Origin: Escherichia coli
Lineage (GTDB): Bacteria > Pseudomonadota > Gammaproteobacteria > Enterobacterales > Enterobacteriaceae
Length of the DNA: 64,000 nt
Strand: one strand, 5' to 3'
Assembly (NCBI RefSeq): GCF_041886205.1
Contig: NZ_CP169029.1
Shown here: positions 1 through 21,695 of the stretch, piece by piece
Layout: every line of letters starts with the position of its first letter
Numbering within the stretch: position 1 is the first letter of the stretch
Translations under genes and position numbers: made by a program
Notes under the pieces: generated by a model
What the model was told of the DNA's origin: nothing
The model's input: only the letters and a program-made list of their open reading frames with translations
Databases searched by the model: none

Positions 1-238
1 CATGTTCATGGCAATGATCAGGTAGCTATAAGTACGTTTGAAATGAACATGTTTGATTTCCGTCGTGATAATATAGGAAAAAGTATGCAATCCGGGTTAG
101 ATAAAAAAACTGCTCCTGCAGGAATCATAATGTAATAAATATTAGATATTTTTATATTAGAGGTGAGGAGATGGCGTCACCTCTAATATTTTCGCTGATT
201 GTATTTAGCATCAAATAATAAAGGTACAATTAATTTAA

Positions 239-424
239 GTGACTATCATGAAAAAATTAGTTCCGCCATATCAAGTAACCCCGGCACAAATCTATCGTTC
301 CGTTGCCAGTTCTACAGCCATTGAAACCGGAAAACCCGTGCAAGAAATTGAGCGACAGCTCAAACGTAACCGAACGCTGGCGAAGAACGTCGGCCTCGCC
401 AGCAAATCCAGAGATCCGATTTAA
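239..424 (+). CDS. Hypothetical small protein (61 aa), convergent with integrase
   Basis: ORF in six-frame track; no recognisable family; AT-rich context. Confidence 0.25.
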   Translation: MTIMKKLVPPYQVTPAQIYRSVASSTAIETGKPVQEIERQLKRNRTLAKNVGLASKSRDPI

Positions 425-428
425 GCCT

Positions 429-1736
429 CTATCTCTGCCCAAACAGGTTAACGACATTGTTTTCCTGCTGTTGCTGGTGGTTATTCACCCGAGACTCCCA
501 GATCTCGAGAGCCTTACGCTTTTCAACCAGGTAATCGTAACGATCGTAGTGTTTAGAACTCACATCCTGTAGAGCATGGTTCTGAATGCGGTCACGCAGG
601 TCTTTAGCAATACCCGCTTCGCCCATCAGGGTCTTACAGGTACGACGAATATCACGCGCAATAAAAGATGGGCTCAACGCAAAGTGTTGCCGGTAATAAA
701 TGATGGCTTGTGCAAAGCTGTCTGTGCGTAGATGCTGTTCCGGTTTAATACGCTGCGGGAAGATGTAAGGACTCTGACTATGATTCTCAGCTTTCAACTT
801 TTCGAGTATCTCAATGGCTGACTCAGTCAAAGGCACCAGATGATCCCTTTTATTTTTCGACACATCCGCCACTATCAATAACGTTTTTTCTTCCCAGTTA
901 ACGGCATCCCAACGGCTGGAAACCAGTTCATGAGGCCGCTGGCCACCCGTATAGACACACAAGTTAAGCAATTGGCTGATTAACGGGCCGACCTTTGGTG
1001 CTTTAGGGAAATCCCCCATCAGTTGCTGCAACTCATCCAGCTTCAGCCAGTTTGTCCCTGCCTTCTCCGCTGCAGATTGTTTGGGTATGACACTCACTGG
1101 GTTCATTTGAAGCCCAAACATCACGTTCTGCTGGTGGTTTGCCGGATCGTTGTCAGCCTTCAACCCATAATTGAATGCTGCCATCAGATAAGAGCGAACA
1201 CGATTTGCTTCAACTGATGCGCCACGTTTAATAATGGTGGCCAGAATTTGTTTGATATGAGCGGGGATAACGTCACGCGCTTTCGTCGCTTTAGGTATAA
1301 ATGGATAGGTTTCTTTTTCCAGCCGGTACAAAACCTGTTGCCAGGTGCGTTTACCGTCTTCACGCATTTTGGTGGTGTAACCCAAAATGAGTTGCTCAAT
1401 GCTGCCTTTGAGCTGGTCTTCACGTTGTTGTTGTTCGGCAGAGAAAAGCTGCTCTGCGATTTCAGCTTTGGGGTCTTTCCCTTCTTTAAGAAGACCCGCA
1501 TGTTCTTTACATTGCTGTCTTGCCTGCGCGAGTGACAACTCTGGGAAACGGCCAAGCAGAATGAATTGCCGTTTTCCTTGCCAAAAATAACGATAGTAAA
1601 ATACTCGCTGACCCGATGGCTCAACTTTCACCCCTAATCGCCCTGCCCCACGCTCACCACTTTTATCCCATTCATAATAAGCAGTAGTCTTCGGCTTCAA
1701 GCCACTAATCATTGAGACAGTTAAATTATCAGCCAT
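429..1736 (-). CDS. int: Tyrosine recombinase / phage integrase, P4 family (start probably Met at 1736; longest ORF extends to 1838)
   Basis: N-terminal arm-binding-like segment (FYYRYFWQGKRQFILLGRFPELSLAQARQQ) and C-terminal catalytic region ending HYDRYDY with conserved R/H/R/Y pattern. Confidence 0.8.
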   Translation of the reverse strand: MADNLTVSMISGLKPKTTAYYEWDKSGERGAGRLGVKVEPSGQRVFYYRYFWQGKRQFILLGRFPELSLAQARQQCKEHAGLLKEGKDPKAEIAEQLFSAEQQQREDQLKGSIEQLILGYTTKMREDGKRTWQQVLYRLEKETYPFIPKATKARDVIPAHIKQILATIIKRGASVEANRVRSYLMAAFNYGLKADNDPANHQQNVMFGLQMNPVSVIPKQSAAEKAGTNWLKLDELQQLMGDFPKAPKVGPLISQLLNLCVYTGGQRPHELVSSRWDAVNWEEKTLLIVADVSKNKRDHLVPLTESAIEILEKLKAENHSQSPYIFPQRIKPEQHLRTDSFAQAIIYYRQHFALSPSFIARDIRRTCKTLMGEAGIAKDLRDRIQNHALQDVSSKHYDRYDYLVEKRKALEIWESRVNNHQQQQENNVVNLFGQR

Positions 1737-1930
1737 AGTATTTTTCAGTCCTTTGTTCGTTACGTCACCCAGTCTGATTCTGGGTGACGTAGTGGGTGAC
1801 GTAAGGATGATACTGAAGGTAAAAACGCAGAACAACATGAAACAACAACCAGCAAATAACCTACTGTTATTTATTAAATTTAATCTAACGTGAAAAAAGA
1901 TGCAAAATCATGAAACATGGATTTCATATG

Positions 1931-1976
1931 ACTCATAATCGCTTGGTCGCTGGTTCAAGTCCAGCAGGGGCCACCA
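1931..1976 (+). other. Partial tRNA-Ile(CAU) gene, 3' half only (anticodon loop to CCA); att-site-like remnant
   Basis: ACTCATAATCGCTTGGTCGCTGGTTCAAGTCCAGCAGGGGCCACCA matches the ileX/ileY-type tRNA from the anticodon loop onward; upstream bases do not match the 5' half. Confidence 0.65.
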
Positions 1977-2731
1977 AATCATCATTCATGTATCAGGAAG
2001 AGTTAAGGGTACAAGGGGTACTCGATGGCGGTCTATATTTCACGATTAACGCCATTTCAAGGAAGAAGTGCGGTGGGTGGTTTCGAATGAGGGCTGGTGT
2101 TTTGGTACGTGGCATGCCACTGCAATGTATTTATCCATCAGTACTCATTCAAAAGTACCTGGAAAAAATGCCCGCTATGCCAAGCGGGCAAATTGCTTAC
2201 ATGTGGAATTAAGTAATTAACGATAAAGCCAGAGTATTATCATTTATCATGCCTCTTCATTTAATCAGGTTAATTACTCAAATCACTGAACTATTCTCTG
2301 TTCGCTTACTGATGATAAGTGAAGTGTCACAACCACGATTTGTATGTGGACCAATGCCGTAGAGTAAGGATGAAATGTCTCTGCCACGCATTAAACATCT
2401 ACTACTGACCAGAACACCCGCCGCAGGCAGATGAGTCTTGTGAGTATTACAGAAGCATGGCTATGCTCATTAACCAACTCTAATAGATATAAATTCCTAA
2501 CACTCGAAAAACGAATTTCACTAATAAGTCATAACGGGTGATTTTTATCATACAGCGAAATAACCTTTTGTTTATTAAATTTAACATTCTTGTGCTTATT
2601 TAATTAAAAATTCCATGCGTAGCATGTGAAACAGTTAATGTCAGCAAATGTCTCAAATGAGCGATTTTTTATAGTGACAAACAGTAATAACGTTAAAAAT
2701 AGCCATGAAGACATTAACTGAGGAATAGACA

Positions 2732-4081
2732 ATGTTAGTTAGTAAAAGCAACGAATTTAACACTAGCGCAGTTTTGGCTAGCAGGAATTATAATGAAAAC
2801 AATTCTTCCAACCCCATGGGGCTACTAGCTTATAGTATTTTAAATTTAATTTGTAAGGAAGCTGCCTCAGGGACGTACAACGGTGCTATTGAAATTTTAC
2901 AAAAAATGATGTCTGAATGTAAATATCAAGAAGGCAACGCCTTTGTCATTATGGGATCTGGAGAACAATTAAAACGTATTAAATATGATGTTGATGAAAA
3001 TAACTTAAAAGTATTCAACGTACACTTTAATAATAATGAAGAGTTAGTTACTGATGGTGAGCCTGACGTAGTATGTTTAAGCAAGCAGGAGTGGGAAAAT
3101 CTTCTCATTAAATTAAAACCGGAGATTAAAGAAAATGTGTTTTCTGAAAATAACAAATCATCGAGAGAAAATAATGTTGATCAGTATGTTCAATCCGCTA
3201 AAAGAAATGAACAGGCCCTTTTCGATAATATAATAAAAAGTGATTTTCATGTTGCTTCACTTCAGCCAGGTAGTACGCGTAGTGTTATTTCAGAAACGCC
3301 ACGAAATGTCTGTATGGAACCACGTAATTCCTATGAAACCAAAATAGATGAGATTTCATCTTTGTCAGAGTCAAAGGAACACTCCATAGATATTCAAGAA
3401 AAAACAGATGCGTTTGTGAATGAGTTCAAGGGGATATTATTTGATAAAAATGGAACGTCTTCAGAGTTTCTACTTAATTTTTATGAATGTTGCTATGAGT
3501 TTTTACCAAGAGCGCAGCCTCAGGATAAAATCGATAGCTATAATTCAGCACTGCAAGCTTTTTCCATCTTTTGTTCATCTACGTTGACACATAATAATAT
3601 AGGCTTTGATTTCAAATTATTTCCAGAAGTCAAGCTGTCTAGAGAACATCTTGAAACGGTATTCAAATACAAAAATGGCGATGATGTCCGGGAGATAGCC
3701 AAAATTAACATTACTCTCCAAAAAGAAGAGGGTGGTTTATATAATTTACGTGGATTAGATTTTAAGGGATGCTTCTTTTCTGGACAGAACTTCAGTAACT
3801 ATGATATTCAATATGTGAACTGGGGAACGTCATTGTTTGATCTTGATACTCCATGTATTTTTAATGCGCCTGCTTACAACAAGAGTAATGAAAAATCATT
3901 AGAACGCGTCAGCGAAAACGGTTTAAGTGGAGTCTTGTCTGATCGTAATAAAAAAATAAAACTCATCACGGGCGTGGCACCATTCGATGATATTTTATTT
4001 ATGGATGACGACTTTGATGATAGTTCCTCTGAGGATGATCCCGTTGAGAATAGTCCTGTTGTGACTAGTCCCCTTGTATAA
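2732..4081 (+). CDS. AT-rich hypothetical protein, ypjC-like, with pentapeptide-repeat-like segment near C-terminus
   Basis: 449-aa ORF, low GC, Asn/Ser-rich; segment NLRGLDFKGCFFSGQNFSNYDIQYVNW resembles pentapeptide repeats; position matches ypjC of K-12. Confidence 0.55.
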   Translation: MLVSKSNEFNTSAVLASRNYNENNSSNPMGLLAYSILNLICKEAASGTYNGAIEILQKMMSECKYQEGNAFVIMGSGEQLKRIKYDVDENNLKVFNVHFNNNEELVTDGEPDVVCLSKQEWENLLIKLKPEIKENVFSENNKSSRENNVDQYVQSAKRNEQALFDNIIKSDFHVASLQPGSTRSVISETPRNVCMEPRNSYETKIDEISSLSESKEHSIDIQEKTDAFVNEFKGILFDKNGTSSEFLLNFYECCYEFLPRAQPQDKIDSYNSALQAFSIFCSSTLTHNNIGFDFKLFPEVKLSREHLETVFKYKNGDDVREIAKINITLQKEEGGLYNLRGLDFKGCFFSGQNFSNYDIQYVNWGTSLFDLDTPCIFNAPAYNKSNEKSLERVSENGLSGVLSDRNKKIKLITGVAPFDDILFMDDDFDDSSSEDDPVENSPVVTSPLV

Positions 4082-4389
4082 AGTTCTAAAAGCAGTTTTC
4101 AATGATAAATAAATGGCTATTTTTACGAAGAGATAATAACGTAGATTGAAACAATATGTATTATTGATTGAGTAAACGGGATTATTATTCACACTACATC
4201 CATTTTAGTGTCACTACCAAAGAAAAAGGGGCTACGTTTTCATGTAACCCCTTGATTTATTTGGTGGGCTGGCAGTGACTGAATTGGTGCTGTAATTGGT
4301 TGAAATATTTCATCTAATGTCTGGTTTAACTTTCCTTAGCTGCCTGAAAGTTTTTTGATCTCACCCAGCAATAACAGCGTTACGGTGCA

Positions 4390-4680
4390 CCACGACTGAC
4401 TGAAGAACTGCGTGCTCAGGGTTACCACTTCAACGTAAAACCGTGGCAGGAGGTCCGGACTGAAAAAACTGCTCAGGACATTATCGGCAGGGTACGCACT
4501 GGTAGTCTGTAAACTGAACCGACTGGGGCGCAGTATGTGGCATCTTGTCGTGCTGTTGGAGGAGCTGTGCGAACGTGGTATTAACTTTCGTGCTCTGGCC
4601 CAATCTATATTTGCCCAACAATGGGGGGACGGAAGCTGTAAAAGTAAAACAATCTGCGATCTCAGAGTTATTGTGTGATT
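4390..4680 (+). pseudogene. pinH: Serine invertase (Pin/Hin family) fragment, pinH-like pseudogene
   Basis: Translation KLNRLGRSMWHLVVLLEELCERGINFRALAQSI matches the resolvase/invertase catalytic-domain core; frameshifted upstream, no intact N-terminus or HTH. Confidence 0.7.
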
Positions 4681-5007: not shown

Positions 5008-8000
5008 ATGAAATTTATGAACAGGACCAGTCCCTATTATTTTCGCCGCTCAGTACTTTCCTTATTGATATCTGCCCTGATATATGCTCCGCCCGGGATG
5101 GCGGCCTTTACTACTAATGTTATTGGTGTGGTAAATGATGAGACTGTAGATGGCAACCAACGAGTAGATGAACGAGGTACAACAAATAACACTCATATTA
5201 TCAACCATGGCCAGCAGAGTGTTTATGGCGGAGTATCTAATGGAAGTATTATTGAATCGGGTGGATATCAAGATGTTGGAAGGAATAACAATTATATGGG
5301 GCAGTCTAATAATACAACCATTAACGGAGGAAGACAGACAATTCATGACGGGGGCATTTCCACCGGTACGATAATCGACAGTGGCAATCAGGACGTTTAT
5401 ACAGGTGGTATCAGCAATGGAACGACAATTAAGGGTGGTAATTCACACATAAGTGGGGGGACTGCGAATGGAACAATCATTGATGGTGGCAGCCAACGAG
5501 TAACAACGCAGGGGCATGTTGACAGTACAACGATAAATAAGTCTGGCTCTCAGGACATCACGCAAGGAAGTCTGGCGACGAACACAATCATAAATGGTGG
5601 ACGACAGTATGTTGAACAGAGCACAGTAGGAACAACCACCATTAAAAATGGCGGTGAGCAAAGAGTATATGAAAGCCATGCGCTGGACACGACGATTGAA
5701 GGTGGAACTCAGTCTCTGAATAATAAGTCAACGGCAAAAAATACTCAGATCTATTCTGGTGGTACGCAAATTGTTGATAACACCAGCACCTCGGATGTTA
5801 TTGAAGTTTATTCCGGTGGCGTGCTTGATGTTAGTGGTGGTACGGCAACAAATGTTACCCAGCACGATGGTGCAATTTTAAAAACAAACACTAACGGTAC
5901 GACGGTGAACGGTACGAATAGTGAAGGTGCATTCTCCATCCACAATCACGTGGCAGACAATGTGTTGCTGGAAAACGGTGGTCATTTAGACATAAACGCA
6001 TATGGTTCGGCAAACAAGACTATTATCAAAGATAAAGGAACAATGTCAGTTTTAACCAATGCTAAAGCTGATGCGACCCGAATAGATAACGGCGGGGTAA
6101 TGGATGTTGCCGGAAACGCGACCAATACCATAATTAATGGTGGCACACAGAATATTAATAATTATGGCATAGCCACGGGAACCAATATCAACAGCGGAAC
6201 GCAAAATATCAAGAGCGGCGGGAAAGCTGACACGACAATTATATCCTCCGGGAGCCGGCAGGTTGTTGAGAAAGATGGTACGGCAACTGGCAGCAATATT
6301 AGCGCCGGAGGCTCGCTGATTGTCTATACCGGCGGTATTGCACATGGGGTTAACCAGGAGACGGGCAGTGCTTTAGTTGCCAACACGGGTGCAGGGACTG
6401 ATATCGAAGGATACAACAAGCTCTCTCACTTCACTATTACCGGAGGGGAGGCTAATTATGTTGTGCTGGAAAATACCGGCGAACTGACGGTAGTGGCTAA
6501 AACCTCGGCGAAAAATACTACCATTGATACTGGCGGTAAGCTGATTGTCCAGAAGGAGGCTAAAACAGATAGCACCAGACTTAATAATGGCGGCGTTCTG
6601 GAGGTTCAGGACGGTGGTGAGGCTAAGCATGTTGAGCAACAATCCGGCGGCGCATTAATTGCTTCCACGACCTCCGGAACACTTATCGAAGGAACCAACA
6701 GTTATGGTGATGCTTTCTACATCAGGAATTCAGAAGCTAAAAATGTAGTGCTGGAAAACGCTGGCTCATTAACAGTCGTCACTGGTTCCCGGGCAGTTGA
6801 TACGATTATTAATGCCAATGGCAAAATGGATGTTTATGGAAAAGATGTTGGCACTGTACTTAATAGTGCTGGCACCCAAACAATATATGCCAGTGCCACT
6901 TCTGATAAAGCAAATATCAAAGGTGGCAAGCAAACGGTATATGGTTTAGCCACTGAAGCAAATATCGAAAGTGGTGAACAAATTGTTGATGGTGGGTCAA
7001 CAGAGAAAACACACATCAATGGTGGCACGCAAATCGTTCAGAATTATGGTAAGGCAATCAATACCGATATCGTCTCTGGCCTACAACAAATTATGGCAAA
7101 CGGGACAGCGGAAGGTTCCATTATTAATGGGGGTTCACAGGTAGTTAATGAGGGCGGTCTGGCTGAAAACTCGGTGCTTAATGACGGCGGCACACTCGAT
7201 GTGCGGGAGAAAGGCAGCGCAACGGGGATACAGCAGAGTAGCCAGGGCGCTTTGGTTGCAACCACCAGGGCGACGCGGGTCACAGGAACACGCGCGGATG
7301 GCGTCGCGTTCAGCATCGAGCAGGGTGCGGCGAACAATATCCTGCTGGCAAATGGCGGCGTGTTAACCGTGGAGTCAGACACCTCTTCTGACAAAACACA
7401 GGTCAATATGGGCGGACGGGAGATCGTCAAAACAAAAGCCACTGCGACAGGCACGACGCTCACCGGCGGTGAACAAATTGTCGAGGGTGTGGCGAATGAG
7501 ACAACAATTAACGACGGCGGAATACAAACAGTTTCAGCTAACGGAGAGGCAATAAAAACAAAGATCAATGAAGGCGGTACGCTGACAGTCAACGATAATG
7601 GCAAAGCGACAGATATCGTCCAGAACAGCGGTGCCGCTCTCCAGACGAGCACGGCTAACGGTATTGAAATCAGCGGTACTCACCAGTACGGTACTTTTTC
7701 CATTTCCGGCAATTTAGCGACCAATATGTTGCTGGAAAATGGCGGTAATTTATTGGTATTAGCAGGTACCGAAGCTCGCGACTCCACGGTTGGCAAGGGT
7801 GGGGCAATGCAAAACCTGGGTCAGGACTCCGCCACAAAGGTTAACTCTGGCGGGCAATATACCCTTGGGCGGTCAAAAGATGAGTTTCAGGCTCTGGCCC
7901 GGGCAGAAGATCTCCAGGTCGCTGGCGGTACGGCAATCGTCTACGCAGGTACGCTGGCGGATGCATCGGTCAGTGGCGCGACAGGAAGCCTGTCGTTAAT

Positions 8001-9597
8001 GACGCCACGGGATAATGTTACGCCAGTTAAACTCGAAGGGGCGGTCCGGATTACCGATAGCGCGACATTGACTCTGGGAAATGGCGTCGATACCACGCTT
8101 GCCGACCTGACGGCTGCCAGCCGGGGCAGTGTCTGGCTTAACAGCAATAATTCCTGTGCAGGTACCAGCAACTGCGAATATAGAGTAAACAGTTTGCTAC
8201 TCAACGACGGTGATGTTTATTTGTCAGCACAAACAGCAGCGCCTGCCACAACTAACGGTATCTACAATACGCTGACAACCAATGAACTTTCCGGTAGCGG
8301 TAATTTCTACCTGCATACCAACGTTGCAGGCTCCCGGGGCGATCAACTGGTCGTCAACAACAACGCCACTGGTAATTTTAAAATCTTTGTTCAGGATACC
8401 GGCGTCAGCCCACAGTCTGACGACGCGATGACGCTGGTGAAAACAGGGGGAGGGGATGCTTCGTTTACGCTGGGCAATACCGGCGGTTTCGTTGATCTTG
8501 GGACCTATGAGTATGTCCTGAAAAGTGACGGCAACAGCAACTGGAACCTGACCAATGATGTCAAACCCAACCCGGACCCCATCCCAAATCCAAAGCCAGA
8601 CCCAAAACCCGATCCAAAGCCAGACCCAAATCCAAAACCAGACCCTACTCCCGATCCAACGCCGACACCCGTTCCGGAGAAACGCATTACGCCTTCTACG
8701 GCAGCCGTACTCAATATGGCAGCAACATTACCGTTGGTATTTGATGCTGAGCTAAACAGTATTCGCGAGCGGTTGAACATAATGAAAGCGAGTCCACACA
8801 ACAATAATGTCTGGGGGGCGACGTATAACACCCGTAATAATGTCACCACCGATGCGGGTGCCGGGTTTGAGCAGACGCTGACCGGAATGACAGTGGGGAT
8901 CGACAGCCGTAATGATATTCCTGAAGGAATTACCACGCTAGGCGCTTTTATGGGCTATTCCCATTCACATATCGGTTTTGATCGCGGAGGACATGGCAGT
9001 GTGGGCAGTTATTCTCTGGGCGGCTATGCCAGTTGGGAACATGAAAGTGGTTTCTATCTGGACGGTGTCGTGAAGCTGAACCGTTTTAAAAGTAACGTAG
9101 CAGGTAAAATGAGCAGCGGTGGAGCCGCCAATGGCAGTTACCACAGCAACGGGCTGGGCGGTCACATTGAAACCGGGATGCGATTTACCGATGGTAACTG
9201 GAACCTGACGCCGTATGCATCGTTAACGGGGTTCACCGCTGATAACCCCGAATATCATTTATCCAATGGCATGGAATCGAAATCAGTCGATACCCGCAGT
9301 ATATATCGTGAACTGGGTGCAACGCTGAGTTACAACATGCGTCTGGGGAACGGTATGGAAGTTGAGCCGTGGCTGAAGGCGGCTGTGCGCAAAGAATTTG
9401 TCGATGATAACCGGGTGAAGGTGAATAATGACGGTAATTTCGTCAATGATTTGTCGGGCAGACGTGGAATATACCAGGCAGGTATTAAAGCCTCATTCAG
9501 TAGTACGTTAAGCGGGCATCTCGGGGTGGGGTATAGCCATGGTGCCGGTGTGGAATCACCGTGGAACGCGGTGGCTGGTGTGAACTGGTCGTTCTGA
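5008..9597 (+). CDS. ypjA: Large adhesin-like autotransporter (ypjA-like); start assigned to the signal-peptide Met, ORF opens at 4888
   Basis: Signal peptide (MKFMNRTSPYYFRRSVLSLLISALIYAPPGMAA), long passenger of about 19-residue Gly/Thr/Asn-rich repeats, Pro-Asp-Lys linker, C-terminal beta-barrel ending VNWSF. Confidence 0.85.
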   Translation: MKFMNRTSPYYFRRSVLSLLISALIYAPPGMAAFTTNVIGVVNDETVDGNQRVDERGTTNNTHIINHGQQSVYGGVSNGSIIESGGYQDVGRNNNYMGQSNNTTINGGRQTIHDGGISTGTIIDSGNQDVYTGGISNGTTIKGGNSHISGGTANGTIIDGGSQRVTTQGHVDSTTINKSGSQDITQGSLATNTIINGGRQYVEQSTVGTTTIKNGGEQRVYESHALDTTIEGGTQSLNNKSTAKNTQIYSGGTQIVDNTSTSDVIEVYSGGVLDVSGGTATNVTQHDGAILKTNTNGTTVNGTNSEGAFSIHNHVADNVLLENGGHLDINAYGSANKTIIKDKGTMSVLTNAKADATRIDNGGVMDVAGNATNTIINGGTQNINNYGIATGTNINSGTQNIKSGGKADTTIISSGSRQVVEKDGTATGSNISAGGSLIVYTGGIAHGVNQETGSALVANTGAGTDIEGYNKLSHFTITGGEANYVVLENTGELTVVAKTSAKNTTIDTGGKLIVQKEAKTDSTRLNNGGVLEVQDGGEAKHVEQQSGGALIASTTSGTLIEGTNSYGDAFYIRNSEAKNVVLENAGSLTVVTGSRAVDTIINANGKMDVYGKDVGTVLNSAGTQTIYASATSDKANIKGGKQTVYGLATEANIESGEQIVDGGSTEKTHINGGTQIVQNYGKAINTDIVSGLQQIMANGTAEGSIINGGSQVVNEGGLAENSVLNDGGTLDVREKGSATGIQQSSQGALVATTRATRVTGTRADGVAFSIEQGAANNILLANGGVLTVESDTSSDKTQVNMGGREIVKTKATATGTTLTGGEQIVEGVANETTINDGGIQTVSANGEAIKTKINEGGTLTVNDNGKATDIVQNSGAALQTSTANGIEISGTHQYGTFSISGNLATNMLLENGGNLLVLAGTEARDSTVGKGGAMQNLGQDSATKVNSGGQYTLGRSKDEFQALARAEDLQVAGGTAIVYAGTLADASVSGATGSLSLMTPRDNVTPVKLEGAVRITDSATLTLGNGVDTTLADLTAASRGSVWLNSNNSCAGTSNCEYRVNSLLLNDGDVYLSAQTAAPATTNGIYNTLTTNELSGSGNFYLHTNVAGSRGDQLVVNNNATGNFKIFVQDTGVSPQSDDAMTLVKTGGGDASFTLGNTGGFVDLGTYEYVLKSDGNSNWNLTNDVKPNPDPIPNPKPDPKPDPKPDPNPKPDPTPDPTPTPVPEKRITPSTAAVLNMAATLPLVFDAELNSIRERLNIMKASPHNNNVWGATYNTRNNVTTDAGAGFEQTLTGMTVGIDSRNDIPEGITTLGAFMGYSHSHIGFDRGGHGSVGSYSLGGYASWEHESGFYLDGVVKLNRFKSNVAGKMSSGGAANGSYHSNGLGGHIETGMRFTDGNWNLTPYASLTGFTADNPEYHLSNGMESKSVDTRSIYRELGATLSYNMRLGNGMEVEPWLKAAVRKEFVDDNRVKVNNDGNFVNDLSGRRGIYQAGIKASFSSTLSGHLGVGYSHGAGVESPWNAVAGVNWSF

Positions 9598-10079: not shown

Positions 10080-12413
10080 TTATGTCGCGGTGGTTTCGTC
10101 GCACCGGGGCAGCCAGTCGGCGTTGCTTTCCTCCCTGAGCGCAAGGTTCGTCTGCATCCCCTGATTTGTTCGCCGCCTGGCGTAATTCAGCCCGTACTCT
10201 TTCAGCATCGATGACAGCCCTTTGCCGAACATGGTCAGGCTGAGGGTGTTCTTGTAGCCGTGCGCCTCCATGTAAACCAGATAGGCGTGATACAGGTACA
10301 GGCGCGGCTGTCGCGGGATGATATTCGCATTCCCCATGTACATACCGTCAGGCTCGGGCAGCGCCTCCAGATAGCCACAAAAATCGAATGTCGGGTCAGC
10401 GTCGCGCTTGATGCTGAGTGCCTCGTCGGAGTTCTGCTGCGACTGGAGCAGTGTGCGCGCGGTCATCGGGTCGCTGAACGTCTGCATAAGCTGACGCACG
10501 ATGACGGCCAGCTCGCGGGCAATTTTATCTTTCAGCTTCGGGTCACGCTCCTCCGGGGCAATCTGTTCCGGGAAGTGCATTATCACCCGGCGACGCGACA
10601 CGCCGCCGCTGCGGTCGGTGAAGCGCATCGGATTGTTGTTTACGGCCAGTATCACCGCCGGAATATGGGTGGAGTACGCATCGCGGTATTTCGGGTCAAC
10701 CGAGACCGCATCCCCGCCGGTGATGGCCTTGAGTCCTGCCCCGTCACCGCTCCATTTCTCCTGGTCAGGCAGACGTATCAGCGAGAAGCCAATCAGCGCC
10801 GCGCGCTCGCGGGGGGATTCCAGCGTTTCGATAGTCGCTGACGTGGCGTTATCTTCCCCGGCGAGCATGGTCGCTATTTCGGCCAGAATACTTTTCCCGC
10901 TGCCACCGGGACCGGTCACTTCGAGGAAGAGCTGCCAGTCGTAGCGGTTCGCCAGCACCATAAACAGCGCGGCGAGTATCACGTCACGTTTATCGGCACG
11001 CGAACCGGCGGCGCGGTCGAGCCAGCGCCAGAAATTCGGCGCGTGCGTCTCCAGCGTTTCCCCCTCCACCGGCGGGGTGAAATCCACGTCGCACAGGGTG
11101 CGCAGCCAGTGCGTTTTGCTGTGCGGGCTGAATATACCGGTACTGGTATCAAGCACGCCGTTGCGAAAGCCAATCAGCCGCCGTGGCGGGGCATCCTGCT
11201 GCGGAATAATCAGTTTCAGGGTGTCCACCACCGAGGCAATTTTCCCCGACGAAAACGGGGCGCGCAGACGCTGGAACAGCCCGGCCACGTCGCGCGCAAA
11301 GTCTGACGGCGGAATGATTTTCCATATACCGGCTTCATAGCGGGACAGGAGCTGCCCGTTCGCATCCACCGCCAGCGCTTCGCCGTAATGCTCATGCACC
11401 CGCATGGCTTTCTCACTGGTGCTCATGGCGGTAAATTCCGCCTCGCTCATGGTAGAGAAAGGGCTTTCAGCCGGTGGCCGGATGGCGTCATACATGGCTT
11501 TACGCGTGGCCTCCCCACCGTGCTGTGTATACGCATCATTCCAGTCACCGAACACCGGCGGCAGGGCGACCACGCCCTCACAGGACTCTGCGGCCGCAGA
11601 CGCTTTGGTCTGGCCGTCGCCGTTAAGGTCACGGTCGGCGGCAATGACAATCCGGCAGGCCGGGTATTTGTGACGGGCAAGGCTCGCCAGAGAAAGGAGG
11701 TTCACCGACGACAGCGCCACCATGACGGTTTCGCCGGTCAGGTGATGCACGGTGAGCGCGGTCGCGTAGCCCTCCGCTATCCACAGCCGTTTTCCCGCCT
11801 CTTTTTTCCCGTCGAGAATATGACATGTCCCTTTTACCTGCCCCCCTTTCAGGGTGCGCTTGAGACCGTCCGCGTTAATGAGCTGGACGTTAACCAGTGC
11901 GCCGCTATCGTCATACAGCGGGACAACCACATCCCCGGCACGGTACGTCACACCGCCGGTTTTGTGCATGGCCGTCAGTACCTGACATTCCCGGCCGGGA
12001 AAGCCCTTGCGGGTGAGGTAGGCGTTGCCGGTGGCCGGTTGGGTTTTCTCCATCAGTCTGGCGGCCAGCGCGGCCGCCGCTTTGCGGTCGGCCTCCGTTT
12101 CAGCGTCTGCGGCCGCAGTCACCGCCGGGGATACCGGAGGCAGGTTGCCGGTCACGGCGTTCACCTTCCCGGCCGCCTCTGACGGGGTCACGCCGAACAC
12201 TTTCTCAACCAGTTTCAGACCGTCCCCCGCGCCGCACTGGTTACAGAACCACGTCCCGCGTCCCTCCTTATCGTCAAAGCGAAAGCGGTCGGAGCCGCCA
12301 CACACCGGACAGGCCTGATGACGGTTTTTGATGACCGTTACCCCCAGCGCCGGGAGAATGCGCGGCCAGTGGCCGCACGCCTGTTTCACGGTGTCCGTTA
12401 CGTTCATTTTCAT
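10080..12413 (-). CDS. P4 alpha-like primase-helicase (777 aa)
   Basis: N-terminal zinc-binding cysteine pairs (CPVCGG ... CNQCG), central primase region, Walker A (GPGGSGKS) helicase domain; size identical to P4 alpha. Confidence 0.9.
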   Translation of the reverse strand: MKMNVTDTVKQACGHWPRILPALGVTVIKNRHQACPVCGGSDRFRFDDKEGRGTWFCNQCGAGDGLKLVEKVFGVTPSEAAGKVNAVTGNLPPVSPAVTAAADAETEADRKAAAALAARLMEKTQPATGNAYLTRKGFPGRECQVLTAMHKTGGVTYRAGDVVVPLYDDSGALVNVQLINADGLKRTLKGGQVKGTCHILDGKKEAGKRLWIAEGYATALTVHHLTGETVMVALSSVNLLSLASLARHKYPACRIVIAADRDLNGDGQTKASAAAESCEGVVALPPVFGDWNDAYTQHGGEATRKAMYDAIRPPAESPFSTMSEAEFTAMSTSEKAMRVHEHYGEALAVDANGQLLSRYEAGIWKIIPPSDFARDVAGLFQRLRAPFSSGKIASVVDTLKLIIPQQDAPPRRLIGFRNGVLDTSTGIFSPHSKTHWLRTLCDVDFTPPVEGETLETHAPNFWRWLDRAAGSRADKRDVILAALFMVLANRYDWQLFLEVTGPGGSGKSILAEIATMLAGEDNATSATIETLESPRERAALIGFSLIRLPDQEKWSGDGAGLKAITGGDAVSVDPKYRDAYSTHIPAVILAVNNNPMRFTDRSGGVSRRRVIMHFPEQIAPEERDPKLKDKIARELAVIVRQLMQTFSDPMTARTLLQSQQNSDEALSIKRDADPTFDFCGYLEALPEPDGMYMGNANIIPRQPRLYLYHAYLVYMEAHGYKNTLSLTMFGKGLSSMLKEYGLNYARRRTNQGMQTNLALREESNADWLPRCDETTAT

Positions 12414-12424
12414 GGTGTTCTCCC

Positions 12425-12745
12425 TCAGTGCAGCGCCGGTGCGGTGATATGACGGGCGCAGAGTTCATCCATCACGGCCAGCCCGAGAAAGGACAGCGAC
12501 GGCGCGGCCTTGAGTGGTCCGGCTTCCATTAAATCTTCGAGCAGGGCACAGGCAATCTGACGGCCTTTTTCCTCGCCATGCTGGCGCAGGTAGAAGCCCT
12601 CCAGCTCGGTCGCAATGGCGCTTTCCAGCGTACTGAGCGTGAGCTGCGGGTAGCGGTGCTGACGTTCGCACAGGGTCAGCCATGCACAGGCCACGGCGCG
12701 GCGATAGAGCGCGGCGCGTAAGACGGGCGTTAATGGCTTTTTCAT
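12425..12745 (-). CDS. Hypothetical protein (106 aa), satellite left operon
   Basis: ORF abutting the alpha start in the same operon. Confidence 0.45.
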
Positions 12746-13002: not shown

Positions 13003-13073
13003 TATTTCGTCTCCTGAGGACGTGCGTATCCCTGCGCAGATACGCACATTTTATTTTGGGGTGTCGTTTTTAA

Positions 13074-16261: not shown

Positions 16262-16277
16262 TTCAGGAGAAAAGACA

Positions 16278-17036: not shown

Positions 17037-17113
17037 TGCGCGCCAAGCGATATATAATTAATTAATGAAGAAGGATAGAATTAACCATATAGCCATAAAA
17101 AAGGATGCGGGTG

Positions 17114-18685
17114 ATGAAGGCGAGTGATATGCAGCACTTATGTAATATAGCCAGAGAGCTTGTTTCTGATGGCAAGTTTGAAAAGGCGTATGAGTTCACG
17201 TTGCAGATTTATAAATCCCTTGACGAAAATATCTTTGGGGATAATTACTATATACTTCTTTATAATATGGCTGCGAATTTTGTTGATATAGGAGGAATGC
17301 AACCGAATAAAGAGGCTTCTCTGCTAGGCTATAACTTAATGAATGAGCACTTTGACTCTTTTTCTAAAATTATGGATGAATCTACGCTCTATTATAACCT
17401 AGCAAACGCAAAGTCAAACTTGGTTGAAAAAGGCAGTGTTTTTAAACAAACGTTTACAACAATTGAGGATATGGTGGATGTAAAAAATTTATACTGGAAG
17501 GCATTTAAATTACTCGGTGATGATAATACTATATATAGCAAAGAACTGAAGGTCAATTTAGCAAACTCACTCAAGCAACAGTTTAGAGTTGTAGAGTCTA
17601 TTTCATATTATGATGATGTTATTTCCTCGGGGGAAGATATACCGCAAGCATGGATTAACAGGTCTGAAGCCTTAATGCTATTGCTGCAACTCTCTGGTTC
17701 TCATACTATAAAGCATATAAGAGAGATTAGACTTGGATATATGAAAGCAATTGAATCAACAGAGATGCCACCGCCATGGAAACCACACTTTCAATCACGT
17801 GCTGAAAAACTCACGGAAGATATAATCGAAATGTCGGGAAAACCATTTTTTGAAAAAGAAGATGAGCTTGATGAAAAACAGACGCTAGAAGAATATAGCA
17901 AACTTAATAATTATCAAAAATTCGTTTTAGATAACCACTTTGTTCTTTCTGAGCATGGGGTGTATTGTCCTTGCGTAGTTGGGGCTAAAGATAACCTAAC
18001 AATATTACCAACACATAATGATGTTTCTGGTGATTTTATTATTCCCATGGAAATGGTTTTGAATAGGCTAAAGTCTGAATATGCTTTGGCAAGGCGCTCG
18101 TTATTCGAGTATGAGTACATGGAGGAAGTTGATGATGTGGCCTGTTATTCAGAGTTGTATAACGATGAAGTTTTAAATGTTGGTGTTGAGAAGATAAGAA
18201 ATGCATTTCGTATATGTTTTGGTGTGTTAGATAAAATAGCTATTGCAATATGTGAGTTATACGATGTTTATCCAGCCAATAAAATAGTGTACTTTGAAAA
18301 TTTTTGGCAATTAAACCAAAATGGGCGAAGGGATAAGTTTGAAGAAATAAAAACTCCAGCTTTACTGGCTTTATATAGTCTAGCTACTGACCTAAATGAT
18401 AGAAAGAATGGTGAATTATCCTTTTATAAGGATTGGAGAAATGATTTGGAACATAATATAGTGATCGTTCATAAAGATTGCGAGCCTTTAGATATATATA
18501 ATTCCTACGGTTACATGAAGAATATTAGGTTGATATCGGAGTCTGATTTTACTAGACATTTTAAAGTGTTATTGCAAATAGTACGCTCAGCAATTTTTCT
18601 TTTTACCTTTATGGTAAGAGAAGAGGGGGGTAAAAGTAACAAGGATTCATTTTTGATATCAAACTCACTAGATTGGAAAATATGA
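17114..18685 (+). CDS. Cargo protein A (523 aa): TPR-like N-terminal half, C-terminal Rx4H HEPN-like motif; function unknown, candidate defence protein
   Basis: AT-rich ORF with AAGGA 8 nt before ATG at 17114 (ORF opens at 17105); helical repeat-like N-terminus; motif WRNDLEHN near C-terminus; lies in the cos/psu-int variable slot. Confidence 0.7.
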   Translation: MKASDMQHLCNIARELVSDGKFEKAYEFTLQIYKSLDENIFGDNYYILLYNMAANFVDIGGMQPNKEASLLGYNLMNEHFDSFSKIMDESTLYYNLANAKSNLVEKGSVFKQTFTTIEDMVDVKNLYWKAFKLLGDDNTIYSKELKVNLANSLKQQFRVVESISYYDDVISSGEDIPQAWINRSEALMLLLQLSGSHTIKHIREIRLGYMKAIESTEMPPPWKPHFQSRAEKLTEDIIEMSGKPFFEKEDELDEKQTLEEYSKLNNYQKFVLDNHFVLSEHGVYCPCVVGAKDNLTILPTHNDVSGDFIIPMEMVLNRLKSEYALARRSLFEYEYMEEVDDVACYSELYNDEVLNVGVEKIRNAFRICFGVLDKIAIAICELYDVYPANKIVYFENFWQLNQNGRRDKFEEIKTPALLALYSLATDLNDRKNGELSFYKDWRNDLEHNIVIVHKDCEPLDIYNSYGYMKNIRLISESDFTRHFKVLLQIVRSAIFLFTFMVREEGGKSNKDSFLISNSLDWKI

Positions 18686-18814: not shown

Positions 18815-19801
18815 TTATGTTATATTGAGGAAATCTGGGATATTAGCTGGTTCAAGGTCAAAAATATATTTAATGATTCCGGCTTTTAGGTTCTCCTCAA
18901 TTCCTTTCCTGAAATCTAGAATACTTGAGATTGTTGCATCATGTTGTAAATGATGTCGCCAGTGAACATCTTTTTCTCGACTATGAAAAGATAACAATCG
19001 GGTTAGAGCCATATGTGCGAACATTCCTGATTGTTCATCGATTGTATAATGGGCAACCACGTGGGAATCAGAATATGATTCTTTCGTAGAAAGATCCCAA
19101 GAATGAAATAATTGCTGAGCAATTGGTGATAGATCCCTTATTTGTTCATTTCTTCCGTTAGTGAAGTAAACATCATCTATGACGGTATGCCAGTTTTCTT
19201 GTGTCCCTTCATCTGTTTCAATGGTTTCAATAATATTTTCTTTCTTGAAACTTATATGAACACCTGAATTAACTTGTGGAGTGTAGGTGAAGTCACCTAA
19301 AACTTTACTCATTAAGCTATTACGCATTGCATCATTGAAATTAAGATTGAAATTTGTTTTTGCCTTTGTAAATAAATCTAGATCTACCAGGCTCCAAATT
19401 CCATGTCTTCTCCAGGCAATTAAAACGGGCAGCCCTAATAATTGGCCGTAAGCTCTTAATCTGGACACGTAATCTGGACGAAAAGACAAAACATTTCCCA
19501 TGTAAGATTTAACTTCAATCAAAACAGTAGTCTTGCCTGCGCCACGCACATTAAAATTTGCTAGTAAATCTGGAACCTGAAAAGTCTTGTTAGAAGTAGT
19601 TGGATACTGCTGTTGATCCAATTTATGGACTAGGTTGCATTGACCTAGCCAACCACAGATAATCGAAAACTCGTCTTCTAACGGGAGGCCAATATTAAGT
19701 CTATTTACACGTTCAGCGATAGCCTTAGCGTCAGCCTCCCAACCCAGTTGCTCTAGAGATTCATGTATAAGTCTCTCTAAATCTGTCGGCTTATCTTTCA
19801 A
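18815..19801 (-). CDS. Cargo protein B (328 aa): putative PD-(D/E)xK-fold nuclease; function unknown, candidate defence protein
   Basis: AT-rich ORF; VPDLL ... 16 residues ... VLIEVKS fits the PD-(D/E)xK spacing; convergent with protein A. Confidence 0.7.
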   Translation of the reverse strand: MKDKPTDLERLIHESLEQLGWEADAKAIAERVNRLNIGLPLEDEFSIICGWLGQCNLVHKLDQQQYPTTSNKTFQVPDLLANFNVRGAGKTTVLIEVKSYMGNVLSFRPDYVSRLRAYGQLLGLPVLIAWRRHGIWSLVDLDLFTKAKTNFNLNFNDAMRNSLMSKVLGDFTYTPQVNSGVHISFKKENIIETIETDEGTQENWHTVIDDVYFTNGRNEQIRDLSPIAQQLFHSWDLSTKESYSDSHVVAHYTIDEQSGMFAHMALTRLLSFHSREKDVHWRHHLQHDATISSILDFRKGIEENLKAGIIKYIFDLEPANIPDFLNIT

Positions 19802-19960: not shown

Positions 19961-21148
19961 TTAATGATTTACTTTATCTCCCCACCAATCCATCAACTCA
20001 ACTCTTTGAAGTAAATAAGTTGAACGGTTGTAAGCTTTTCGAACTTCATTTTTGTCTGAGTGTGCTAATGCTGCTTCAATAACATCAGAATTAAATCCGG
20101 CTTCATTGAGTGCAGTACTTGCGATGGACCGTAACCCGTGAGCAACTAATTTCCCACCATAACCAATACGCTTAAGTGCGGCATTAGCAGTCTGACTATT
20201 CATTGGTTGCTTAGGGTTATTTCTGCTGGGAAAAACATGTTCACGGTGAGCGCTGATTGGTTTCATCACTTCCAGAATATCTAACGCCTGAGGAGATAGT
20301 GGGACTATGTGCTCACGCTTAGCTTTCATCCGTTCGGCAGGAATTGTCCAGAGCTTTGCATCAAGATCGATCTCTGCCCACCGGGTACTGGAAGCCTCAG
20401 AAGGGCGCACAAGGGTCAGGAGTTGCCATTCGATTAGACAGCGAGTCGGAACAGACAGATTTGACATGACTAAAGAACGCATCAGCTTCGGCAATTCTTC
20501 TGGCCGCAACGTCGGCATGTTTTGCTTTTTGGGCTTCTCAAAGGCCATGCCAACACCGGATGCTGGATTGGCATCAATCAGACCAGTGTTTACGGCATAA
20601 ATCATGATTTCGTTAATGCGCTGCACCAGTCGACGTACAGTCTCAAGCGCCCCACGTGCTTTTATTGGCTCAAGGGCTTCAACCAAAGTTCGGGCTTTGA
20701 TTTGCTGAACGGGGATCTCACCGATGGCAGGGAATACATCTTTCTCCAGTGAACGCCAAATGTCTTTTGCGTAATCAGGGGTAACGCTTTTGCTTTTGAG
20801 ATGGAACCAGTTAGCGGCGACCGTTGAAAAAATACTGTCCAGAGCGATTTGCTGCTGTTCCTCTGCAACTTCGGCCTGAATTTGCGGGTCAATTCCGTTG
20901 GCTAACAAGGCAAGGTAATCCGCTCTTAACCCTCGGGCGTCAGCAAGTGAGAGGGCGGGGAAAGCACCTAGCCCCATCATTGTCCGCTGTTTTGTCGCCG
21001 GACGTTGATAACGGAAACGCCAGAGCTTTTTCCCGCTGGTTTTCACTATCAGGAAAAGGCCATCGCCATCATGCAGCGTTAGATCCTTCTCTAACGCTTT
21101 AGCGCGCAGAACTTCGGTGTTGGTCAGGGGGCGTGTTGTCCGTGCCAC
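19961..21148 (-). CDS. int: P4-family integrase (IntA-like) next to ssrA
   Basis: 395 aa; N-terminal LWRFRYQRPATKQRTMMGLGAFPALSLADAR arm-binding-like domain; catalytic C-terminal domain; immediately downstream of tmRNA 3' end. Confidence 0.9.
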   Translation of the reverse strand: MARTTRPLTNTEVLRAKALEKDLTLHDGDGLFLIVKTSGKKLWRFRYQRPATKQRTMMGLGAFPALSLADARGLRADYLALLANGIDPQIQAEVAEEQQQIALDSIFSTVAANWFHLKSKSVTPDYAKDIWRSLEKDVFPAIGEIPVQQIKARTLVEALEPIKARGALETVRRLVQRINEIMIYAVNTGLIDANPASGVGMAFEKPKKQNMPTLRPEELPKLMRSLVMSNLSVPTRCLIEWQLLTLVRPSEASSTRWAEIDLDAKLWTIPAERMKAKREHIVPLSPQALDILEVMKPISAHREHVFPSRNNPKQPMNSQTANAALKRIGYGGKLVAHGLRSIASTALNEAGFNSDVIEAALAHSDKNEVRKAYNRSTYLLQRVELMDWWGDKVNH

Positions 21149-21332: not shown

Positions 21333-21695
21333 TGGTGGAGCTGGCGGGAGTTGAACCCGCGTCCGAAATTCCTACGTCCTCGGTACTACATGCTTAGTCA
21401 GTCTTTACATTCGCTTGCCAGCTGCGGACGGACACGCCACTAACAAACTAGCCTGATTAAGTTTTAACGCTTCAACCCCAGGCAGGGCTTCCACGCGATC
21501 TCTTTTGGGTTTGACCTCTCTTGATCCCCGTCCTAAGAGCGGAGGCTAGGGAGAGAGGGCTCTAAGCAGGTTATTAAGCTGCTAAAGCGTAGTTTTCGTC
21601 GTTTGCGACTATTTTTTGCGGCTTTTTACGAGGCCAACCGCCCCTCGGCATGCACCTTGGGTTTCGCAAATCCCGTCGAATCCAGAATCAGCCCC
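21333..21695 (-). ncRNA. ssrA: tmRNA (SsrA), 363 nt
   Basis: Reverse complement begins GGGGCTGATTCTGGATTCGACGGGATTTGCGAAACC and ends GGTTCAACTCCCGCCAGCTCCACCA; ANDENYALAA tag template region present. Confidence 0.95.

Follow-up and report, generated by a model that had tools for sequence, protein, structure and literature searches.

The window analysed here, a stretch of 64,000 nucleotides from Escherichia coli (NZ_CP169029.1), carries a block of genes and gene remnants arranged as ileY, ypjCB, a recombinase remnant and ypjA. The block begins with the 3′ 47 nt of the tRNA-Ile gene ileY (1930..1976, plus strand), the att copy at the junction of an island integrated in ileY. These 47 nt run from the anticodon loop to CCA and are identical to positions 7531-7577 of locus L001, within the tRNA-Ile of strain wlxctx60, with the similarity ending exactly at 1930. 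The 5′ part of ileY has been replaced in the window by foreign DNA with an integrase ORF, and ARAGORN found no intact tRNA at the remnant. The tyrosine integrase of the island (429..1838, minus strand; Pfam Arm-DNA-bind_3, Phage_int_M and Phage_integrase) is context and not part of ypjCB, and window positions 1-1929 gave no megablast match among 5,426 complete E. coli genomes. The tRNA-Ile att remnant placed upstream of the gene by the first-pass annotation is real, and ypjCB starts 755 bp downstream of it.

The intervening spacer (1977..2731, plus strand) has no annotated gene, is part of the ileY-ypjCB-ypjA block and is collinear with wlxctx60, DH1, O157 and others; it is 92.5-93.7% identical between alleles. 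Downstream of ypjCB lies an internal fragment of a serine recombinase, a pinH-type remnant (4442..4609, plus strand; Pfam Resolvase positions 48-101, E=3.6e-10) annotated as an incomplete pseudogene in every genome examined, and then the co-inherited autotransporter adhesin gene ypjA/ehaD (5017..9597, plus strand; annotation of the identical strain wlxctx60). The order ileY, ypjCB, recombinase fragment, 39-aa ORF and ypjA was the same in all eight genomes examined with their flanks, and ypjCB sits between ileY and ypjA in wlxctx60, DH1, EC11, Xuzhou21, 2014C-3655, 675SK2, WL297, KSC9 and 55989. The gene belongs to this fixed chromosomal block and not to the newer ileY island. On its two sides are the integration hot spots ileY and ssrA, which gather mobile elements with defence cargo, e.g., SIR2 in wlxctx60 and a HEPN-domain ORF in this window, and a P4-like satellite is also found among the neighbours of the locus.

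The ypjCB coding sequence (2732..4081, plus strand, stop codon included; from the ORF list, NCBIfam NF050179 and Pfam) starts with ATG, has a Shine-Dalgarno-like GAGGA read from the sequence 7 nt 5′ of that codon (2720..2724, plus strand) and encodes 449 amino acids. The protein matches NF050179, the 'YpjCB family' of NCBIfam, at 939.4 bits, where the curated cutoff is 650 bits, with residues 1-449 aligned to profile positions 1-465 of 465. Pfam places DUF5507 at aa 1-160 (264 bits) and then DUF5508 at aa 195-449 (561 bits), on a single polypeptide. The window therefore holds an intact, full-length allele of ypjCB, from a known but uncharacterised family. Calling the gene ypjC-like and its product uncharacterised, as the first-pass annotation did, was correct on both points, as the protein is a full-length family member and the family has no assigned function. 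The gene, the family model, the K-12 pseudogene status and the exact protein were all public already: strain wlxctx60 has 100% DNA identity over the gene, which is annotated as ypjCB there, and the identical protein is present in NCBI on 134 public contigs.

The GC content of ypjCB is 34.9%, compared with 49.6% for the whole window, its GC3 is 30%, and the low-GC tract around it spans approximately 2200-4200. The gene had been described as more AT-rich than the neighbouring core genes; its AT-richness holds, but the neighbours, namely the island integrase and the ypjA autotransporter, are accessory rather than core. The description as Asn/Ser/Glu-rich is accurate (Ser 10.5%, Asn 9.8%, Glu 8.9%), and the protein is strongly acidic (net charge -25, pI ~4.4). 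Rare codons are heavily used, with AUA, which is read by the adjacent ileY-type tRNA, making up 8 of the 27 Ile codons. At this base composition a stop is expected every 13 codons (per-codon probability 0.077), so that 449 open codons have a probability of ~2e-16 and an ORF of such length is not due to chance. An Rfam scan of the locus, including the spacer, gave no family match above background, and promoter and terminator scans gave nothing above background near the gene.

In K-12 this gene is the ypjC/ypjB pair (b2650/b2649 region), which occupies the corresponding locus (ileY, ypjCB, pin remnant, ypjA) and has 93.5% DNA identity to the window allele. However, a stop at Gln161 splits the K-12 copy, leaving YpjC with 160 aa and YpjB, which restarts at Met195, with 263 aa, whereas the window allele is intact at 449 aa. 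The profile lengths of DUF5507 and DUF5508, 160 and 263, are the lengths of the two K-12 pseudogene pieces, and as such the DUFs are annotation units and not proven structural domains; to judge from these lengths, the two together make up a single protein that the K-12 nonsense mutation divides, and they are not independent domains. Literature mentions of ypjC are confined to one biofilm study and to gene lists from GalR site prediction, RNAP-omega ChIP and promoter catalogues, and a search under guessed O157 locus tags returned nothing relevant. The biofilm study contains the only published phenotype: when ypjC was deleted in K-12, pathogens colonised the biofilm to a greater extent and biofilm cell numbers were 3.5-fold higher, and the deletion was not complemented by constitutive expression (PMC3646849). 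Given that the K-12 gene is already a pseudogene and that complementation failed, this phenotype may be the result of polar or regulatory effects.

Among 5426 complete E. coli genomes, ypjCB is present in 3109, the 5′ 2 kb of ypjA in 3096 and the spacer in 3058, which puts the block in ~57% of genomes. The window allele is rare, being matched at ≥99% identity in 9 of the 3109 carriers. Other alleles encode 457, 484 or 491-492 aa and owe their extra length to an extended C-terminus and to 35 aa inserted at the linker; in the 484-492-aa alleles this is a 105-bp insertion directly after the linker end (after window nt 3356). Beyond the species, an exhaustive phmmer search over 1.84e9 representatives returned one full-length cluster plus fragments, with all named homologues from E. 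coli or Shigella except one entry, 'Enterobacteriaceae bacterium TzEc077'. A word-index search for distant homologues, seeded with the most divergent member, found E. coli and Shigella only, ypjCB was absent from 50,697 phage records, and the sole match in a degenerate-pattern scan of GTDB species representatives, which include the remaining Escherichia species and further genera that have type III systems, was K-12 contamination. Across these searches the YpjCB family is confined to E. coli and Shigella. ypjCB is an AT-rich, horizontally acquired orphan gene. Since no homologue was found in 15 billion proteins, it could also, though this is improbable, have arisen as a de novo gene or have come from an unsampled donor.

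Between diverged ypjCB allele classes dN/dS is 0.58-0.82, compared with 0.16-0.28 for ypjA at the same dS. The ratio differs by region, being 0-0.34 at aa 336-380, 0.26-0.36 in most comparisons at aa 381-449 and 0.4-0.67 at aa 31-135. The highest values, 1.1-1.95, are those of a hypervariable linker at aa 136-208 (to ~220; 3137..3355, plus strand), which is delimited by dN/dS, indels, stops and low pLDDT and has an excess of nonsynonymous over synonymous changes relative to the rest of the gene (Fisher p=0.02). The K-12 nonsense site (codon 161, nt 3212-3214) falls within it. Homologues are pseudogenes in most genomes, an outcome that the first-pass annotation had set against its own reading: of 24 genomes sampled systematically, 18 have a broken copy, through at least six independent lesions including Q161stop, a stop at codon 235, 1-bp deletions at nt 471, 609 and 1324, and IS1 insertions. 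EAEC 55989 likewise has a broken copy, with a frameshift and an internal stop, so that essentiality of the YpjCB protein can play no role in that strain. A functionless gene, too, would be expected to show an overall dN/dS near 0.7 and to be broken in most copies.

ypjCB is an accessory gene under weak, regionally uneven constraint and is largely decaying. The best explanation overall, which we consider probable, is that the window carries an intact allele of an E. coli/Shigella orphan gene in a fixed block, with a soluble, very acidic product that has no signal peptide. It is unlikely that ypjCB is functionless in every present lineage, i.e., a relic of an old insertion drifting to loss whose intact copies have not yet been hit. 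The range of dN/dS, a total divergence equal to that of the flanking non-coding spacer and the many independent lesions in the broken copies are consistent with a relic, as are the ~43% of complete genomes without the gene and the lack of a homologue anywhere else. However, constraint is uneven, with the low ratios at aa 336-380 and, in most comparisons, aa 381-449 set against values above 1 in the linker. Furthermore, 43 alleles whose proteins diverge by as much as 24% are all open for 444-492 codons in 35%-GC DNA, and single intact variants are each found on hundreds of contigs (e.g., 718, 547, 510 and 494).

The strongly constrained parts of YpjCB are, as judged from the allele alignment, only a seven-pentad motif and a C-terminal acidic tail. 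The motif, which is the best-conserved stretch of the protein, consists of seven in-register pentapeptide-like repeats at aa 337-371 (3740..3844, plus strand), namely YNLRG, LDFKG, CFFSG, QNFSN, YDIQY, VNWGT and SLFDL, whose residues are nearly all invariant among alleles. The peptide that had been quoted as resembling pentapeptide repeats, LRGLDFKGCFFSGQNFSNYDIQYVNW, corresponds to aa 339-364 (nt 3746-3823). Over the seven pentads the strict consensus score is 18/35, a value reached in none of 2000 composition-preserving shuffles, and extension to eight pentads brought no gain in score. The longest invariant DNA run of the gene, 39 nt at 3770-3808, is within this region; by a rough estimate, a run of that length is close to chance expectation given the fraction of invariant columns. 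The conserved acidic-aromatic tail at aa 417-435, PFDDILFMDDDFDDSSSED (3980..4036, plus strand), was defined on the allele alignment, in which columns P417-D430 are invariant or nearly so in the 43 alleles. A reading of this tail as an SSB tail or as a clamp-binding, FFAT or LIR motif is a likeness by eye only and is not claimed.

PF00805 matched the isolated 74-aa segment at 14.5 bits (E=0.027) and the C-terminal half at 12.5 bits, with an alignment that spans 19 residues only (aa 338-356), and full-length YpjCB gives no reported match. The best of these scores is below the PF00805 gathering threshold of 20.2 bits, so on score YpjCB falls outside the pentapeptide-repeat Pfam families (PF00805, PF13576 and PF13599). 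Its seven pentads are also fewer than the eight A(D/N)LXX pentads taken here as the minimum for a tandem array of this family, a number sufficient for two or more complete four-sided coils. The resemblance noted in the first-pass annotation holds in that the seven pentads are non-random and nearly invariant, but they score below the Pfam threshold and have no fold match; in sequence, the resemblance is real and too weak for family membership.

Single-sequence AlphaFold2 gave no usable model (pLDDT 35). With the 43 alleles the mean pLDDT was 40.8, with values of 50-77 in aa 295-365 and 23-31 in the linker, a poor result because the alleles are too alike (76-96% identity to the query) for covariation. 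This model has beta-bridges every five residues over 338-368, at pLDDT 50-69. No pentapeptide-repeat protein was among the matches of three fold searches, and sequence and profile searches of the PDB with YpjCB gave nothing below E=0.5. The lack of a predicted pentapeptide fold, also listed beforehand as counting against the resemblance, holds weakly, only in the sense that no confident fold was obtained. Tentatively, the layout would comprise a conserved N-terminal module at approximately aa 30-135, the hypervariable linker, and a C-terminal module containing the pentads and the tail.

For the preferred reading of a dispensable orphan gene, we can offer a tentative and rather doubtful picture of how the product may work. 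YpjCB would be a soluble, very acidic protein that stays in the cytoplasm and binds a partner rather than catalysing a reaction, both location and binding being inferred, and the short solenoid-like repeat surface together with the acidic tail would serve as the surface for interaction or as a decoy. YpjCB would be of benefit only under certain conditions, which would make the gene dispensable and lead to its repeated loss. The basis for a binding or decoy mechanism is composition and the sub-threshold repeat motif. We think it distinctly improbable that intact YpjCB would be exported or directed to the host as a protein specific to E. coli, or be a decoy mimicking DNA or protein, with a minimal pentad solenoid and a tail that bind a host or phage target and with losses that reflect antagonistic pleiotropy rather than neutrality.

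The proposal that YpjCB is an effector-like, secreted protein is unsupported. YpjCB lacks both a signal peptide and a TM segment (maximum Kyte-Doolittle 19-residue hydropathy 1.02), Pfam and NCBIfam searches at E<=10 list only YpjCB/DUF models, with no HECT-like, WEX5F or other effector domain, and neither a T3SS nor a chaperone gene nor an effector-carrying lambdoid prophage is linked to ypjCB among its neighbours. A WEX5F / WEK(I/M)xxFF translocation motif was considered at W121-E122 and rejected, as Phe is missing from the required positions of the NLLIKL that follows and there was no match to a SopD/EspY-type HMM. It is very unlikely that YpjCB is a type III secretion substrate, i.e., a LEE or ETT2 effector with its Ser/Asn-rich N-terminus as the signal and with a pentapeptide-like module and acidic tail that would work within the host cell, in the manner of NleL/SopA, PipB2 or EspY3. 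Known E. coli and Salmonella effectors do carry pentapeptide repeats (PMC3013003; PMC6313403), with about 200 residues of them in NleL (PMC3013003), about 30 pentads in PipB2 and arrays of only 8 and 9 in EspY3 (PMC6313403), and the array in YpjCB is in line with this. The gene is also low-GC, tRNA-adjacent and lineage-restricted, and two O157:H7 genomes carry it intact. The first 30 residues include few acidic ones and are 50% Ser, Thr, Asn, Gln or Pro, compared with 29% for the rest of the protein, but this bias is weak evidence because the whole protein is Asn/Ser-rich. However, no similarity to effector families appears even at this permissive E-value, what surrounds ypjCB is an autotransporter gene, a recombinase remnant and a P4-like satellite, the gene is on no phage record and in no other GTDB species representative, including genera with type III systems, and it is broken in 75% of sampled carriers.

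Pentapeptide-repeat proteins such as Qnr and MfpA act as DNA mimics. By analogy, YpjCB could be a single-gene phage-defence, anti-defence or DNA-mimic factor, an acidic solenoid imitating DNA, with an arms race or a fitness cost as the reason why it evolves fast and is often lost. We give this very little credence: the net charge, the pentapeptide-like motif, the fast-evolving linker and the position between the ileY and ssrA hot spots with their defence cargo would agree with it, but there is no match among 5027 PADLOC models (PADLOC-DB 2.0) at E<=10, the only PHROG match is a family without known function that is the same protein as YpjCB, the gene is absent from the phage records, its position is fixed in the chromosome and not that of hot-spot cargo, and an array of seven pentads does not complete two coils, whereas the solenoids of Qnr and MfpA are much longer. 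If an intact allele proved functional, it would be an example of a young, lineage-restricted gene between retention and loss. The seven-pentad motif and the acidic tail are the places for experiments to target.

In comparison with pentapeptide-repeat proteins (PF00805, right-handed quadrilateral beta-helix), the pentads of YpjCB likewise fit A(D/N)(L/F)XX, with Leu, Phe, Ile or Trp at the centre, and its low-confidence AlphaFold2 model likewise has a beta-bridge at every fifth residue. However, at 35 aa the array is shorter than those of NleL, PipB2 and EspY3. The gene also resembles the AT-rich, tRNA-flanking, decaying islets of E. coli, such as the cryptic-prophage and 'y-gene' remnants of K-12, in that it has low GC (35%) and rare codons, adjoins a tRNA gene and a recombinase fragment, is patchy in distribution (57%) and is often inactivated. 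Unlike typical decaying islets, the ypjCB ORF in the window is still whole, and parts of it are still under purifying selection.

The gene under study, ypjCB (2732..4081, + strand), is an uninterrupted reading frame of 449 codons with an ATG start and a GAGGA Shine-Dalgarno sequence 7 nt 5' of it. At its base composition one stop is expected per ~13 codons and the probability of 449 open codons is ~2e-16, therefore the ORF is not a chance feature. The first-pass annotation had described an AT-rich, ypjC-like ORF, and this is confirmed: GC content is 34.9% compared with 49.6% for the window (GC3 30%), within a low-GC tract from ~2200 to 4200 (33-36% GC), and the protein, in which Ser (10.5%), Asn (9.8%) and Glu (8.9%) are the commonest residues, scores 939 bits against NCBIfam NF050179 'YpjCB family protein' (cutoff 650) over its whole length. 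Pfam assigns aa 1-160 to DUF5507 and aa 195-449 to DUF5508. By family score, by the presence of both Pfam entries and by its position between ileY (a tRNA-Ile gene) and ypjA (an autotransporter gene), YpjCB belongs to a known family, and NCBI already has the exact protein (134 contigs). In K-12 (DH1, DH5a) an internal stop after codon 160 divides ypjCB into 'ypjC' (160 aa) and 'ypjB' (263 aa), which restarts at Met195 in the 457-aa allele. In length, the profiles PF17612 and PF17621 (DUF5507, 160 positions; DUF5508, 263 positions) equal these fragments exactly, therefore both are annotation fossils of one protein, its two halves cut at a strain-specific nonsense mutation, and not demonstrated domains.

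The locus DNA was found in 3109 of 5426 complete E. coli genomes, chromosomal in all, with 100% identity in strain wlxctx60 (bear faeces, Japan) and 90-95% in most others. The order ileY, ypjCB, serine-recombinase fragment, 39-aa ORF, ypjA was the same in all genomes examined, and the prevalence of ypjA (3096 genomes) and of the ileY-proximal spacer (3058) matches that of ypjCB; ileY-ypjCB-ypjA is one block, present in ~57% of complete genomes. The internal recombinase fragment between ypjCB and ypjA (4442-4609, + strand, 56 codons, Resolvase profile positions 48-101) is kept as a pseudogene in each genome inspected, which suggests that an invertase or resolvase was formerly part of the block. 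When 1.84 billion cluster representatives (~15 billion proteins) were searched exhaustively with phmmer, 44 matches were returned, comprising one full-length cluster (78% identity) and fragments of the same protein. Apart from one entry labelled 'Enterobacteriaceae bacterium', everything retrieved by word-index searching came from E. coli or Shigella sonnei; by length these entries form classes of 449, 457, 484 and 491-492 aa. The gene was on none of 50,697 phage records. Of the four 'plasmid' matches, three are mislabelled 4.8-4.9-Mb chromosomes and one is a 356-bp fragment. The invariant peptide CFFSGQNFSNYDI, written as a codon-degenerate DNA pattern that a motif-diverged homologue would escape, was scanned against 100,044 GTDB species representatives and gave a single match, on a 2.8-kb contig of the Planococcaceae bacterium UBA3370 MAG (DEQI01000374.1); this contig is 100% identical to the ypjCB locus of K-12 DH1 and represents laboratory E. 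coli contamination.

Upstream of ypjCB, the tRNA-Ile att remnant proposed from the first reading is real: 1930..1976 is the 3' 47 nt of tRNA-Ile (ileY), from the anticodon loop to CCA, identical to the tRNA-Ile annotated in wlxctx60 831 bp upstream of ypjCB, and similarity to that gene stops exactly at 1930; ARAGORN calls no tRNA at the remnant. To its left lies a 469-aa tyrosine integrase ORF (429..1838, - strand; Arm-DNA-bind_3, Phage_int_M, Phage_integrase), and together with the split tRNA this indicates that a mobile island has integrated into ileY in this strain. Positions 1-1929 form the right end of the island, which runs on past the left edge of the window, and have no megablast match among the 5,426 complete E. 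coli genomes, although the ypjCB region beside them has a 100% match in a sequenced strain. Since ypjCB occupies the same place with identical sequence in wlxctx60, which lacks the island, it is not part of it. The local ileY copy is split here, and an intact copy must lie beyond the window. The tRNA flanking the block, of the ileX/ileY type, decodes the rare codon AUA, which accounts for 8 of the 27 Ile codons of ypjCB and 19 of the 93 of ypjA. A GC-rich, terminator-like hairpin (2169-2190; 8-bp stem, TGCCCGCT...AGCGGGCA) with a T-run next to it on the minus strand lies 190 bp downstream of the ileY remnant; no minus-strand gene ends at it.

Further along, a P4-like satellite (10080-21148) is integrated at ssrA (tmRNA, 21333..21695, - strand), with a primase-helicase (10080..12413, - strand) and an integrase (19961..21148, - strand). 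The variable slot beside the integrase holds a 526-aa ORF (17105..18685, + strand) with an LA2681-like HEPN domain (E=1.5e-35) and a 328-aa ORF (18815..19801, - strand) with no Pfam or PADLOC match, which may be uncatalogued defence cargo; in the closely related wlxctx60 this slot carries a SIR2 protein.

In 24 locus-carrying genomes, taken at even steps down the ranked list of 3109, ypjCB was intact in six (wlxctx60, two O157:H7 strains and three strains with the 484-aa allele) and disrupted in the other 18 (75%; Wilson 95% interval roughly 55-88%). That homologues are pseudogenes in most genomes, named beforehand as an outcome counting against the first-pass annotation, is thus clearly the case in this sample. 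The lesions are independent events: Gln161stop (10 genomes, K-12 among them); single-base deletions at nt 609 (three genomes, one of them with additional lesions), at nt 1324 and, accompanied by a 15-bp deletion, at nt 471; a stop at codon 235 of the allele that bears the insertion; and two IS1 insertions. In absolute terms intact variants are still frequent, individual protein sequences occurring on 718, 547, 510 and 494 contigs. By the Nei-Gojobori method, comparisons of diverged allele classes give a dN/dS of 0.58-0.82 (0.68-0.73 among intact alleles). For the same strain pairs, 2.4 kb at the 5' end of ypjA have the same dS (0.09-0.14) but a ratio of 0.16-0.28, and the non-coding ileY-ypjCB spacer has diverged equally to ypjCB (92.5-93.7% identity). 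Along the protein, dN/dS is 0.4-0.67 at aa 31-135, 0-0.34 at aa 336-380 and 0.3-0.5 at aa 381-449, and reaches 1.1-1.95 in the linker (aa 136-208), where N:S is in excess of the remainder (Fisher p=0.02). A functionless relic would fit the high dN/dS and the share of pseudogenes, but the regional constraint and the long ORFs still open across diverged alleles make it unlikely. On this evidence ypjCB codes, or until recently coded, for a genuine protein; two of its regions are constrained, selection on the whole is weak and the gene is repeatedly lost. Erosion appears to affect the whole ileY-ypjA block, since ypjA is also frequently damaged: in E. coli 55989 (NC_011748.1, 2992902-2993342) it breaks off at a neighbouring IS3-family element, and in EC11, 2014C-3655, 675SK2 and KSC9 it is frameshifted or truncated.

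The literature on ypjC consists of gene-list mentions and one biofilm study, in which its deletion in K-12 increased EAEC colonisation of biofilm and constitutive expression failed to complement, and no mutant could be made in EAEC 55989 (PMC3646849). As K-12 ypjC is a pseudogene fragment, the K-12 effect may be polar or regulatory. The 55989 failure is no sign of an essential protein: that copy is itself frameshifted with an internal stop.

We consider it highly probable that ypjCB is a known-family accessory gene, gained together with the ileY-ypjA block. Tentatively, and with considerable doubt, we further propose that YpjCB is a soluble acidic cytoplasmic protein acting through partner binding, with a short solenoid-like repeat segment and a conserved acidic-aromatic tail as the putative interaction surface; its benefit would be conditional, making it dispensable in most lineages. 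The protein has no signal peptide or transmembrane segment (maximum 19-residue hydropathy 1.02) and is very acidic (Asp+Glu 70 vs Lys+Arg 45; pI ~4.4), and the tail (PFDDILFMDDDFDD, aa 417-430) is invariant or nearly so across 43 alleles. That YpjCB is a lineage-specific protein with a minimal solenoid that is secreted or acts as a mimic, or that its gene is very young, seems quite improbable. A type III effector is very unlikely; composition, the pentads and the intact O157 copies are the only arguments for it. Ser/Thr/Asn/Gln/Pro make up 50% of residues 1-30 vs 29% elsewhere, which is compatible with a type III signal, though weakly so in a protein Asn/Ser-rich overall. Against it, no effector family, defence family or solved structure matched at any permissive threshold (Pfam, NCBIfam, PADLOC, PDB), no secretion system or chaperone gene lies near ypjCB (past ypjA, wlxctx60 has a P4-like satellite at ssrA, then core genes), and phage carriage and homologues in other species are lacking in the records searched; nothing demonstrates that YpjCB is an effector. 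A role in defence or anti-defence or as a DNA mimic, suggested by acidity and location, is very unlikely given no PADLOC match and a very short repeat array.

The pentapeptide likeness stands in part. The peptide first cited (aa 339-364) falls within seven in-register pentads at aa 337-371 (YNLRG LDFKG CFFSG QNFSN YDIQY VNWGT SLFDL), which match the strict consensus [STAV][DN][LF][STR][G] at 18 of 35 positions, a score reached by 0/2000 composition-preserving protein shuffles (<=1/2000 for arrays of 4-8 pentads). This is the most conserved stretch of YpjCB (dN/dS 0-0.34), with N338-D370 almost wholly invariant in 43 alleles and the longest invariant DNA run in 23 alleles (39 nt, 3770-3808). 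At the sequence level the pentads are real and non-random, but the likeness is sub-threshold: Pfam Pentapeptide (PF00805), whose gathering score is 20.2, reached 14.5 bits across 19 residues, and this solely when the segment was scanned by itself. The absence of a predicted pentapeptide fold counts only weakly against the first-pass annotation, as no confident fold was obtained; its observation holds, its interpretation only in part. On two defining features, the Pfam score and the length of the array, YpjCB lies outside the pentapeptide-repeat family. Its seven pentads amount to <2 coils of a four-sided beta-helix, whereas NleL has ~200 residues of repeats (PMC3013003), PipB2 ~30 pentads and EspY3 arrays of 8 and 9 (PMC6313403).
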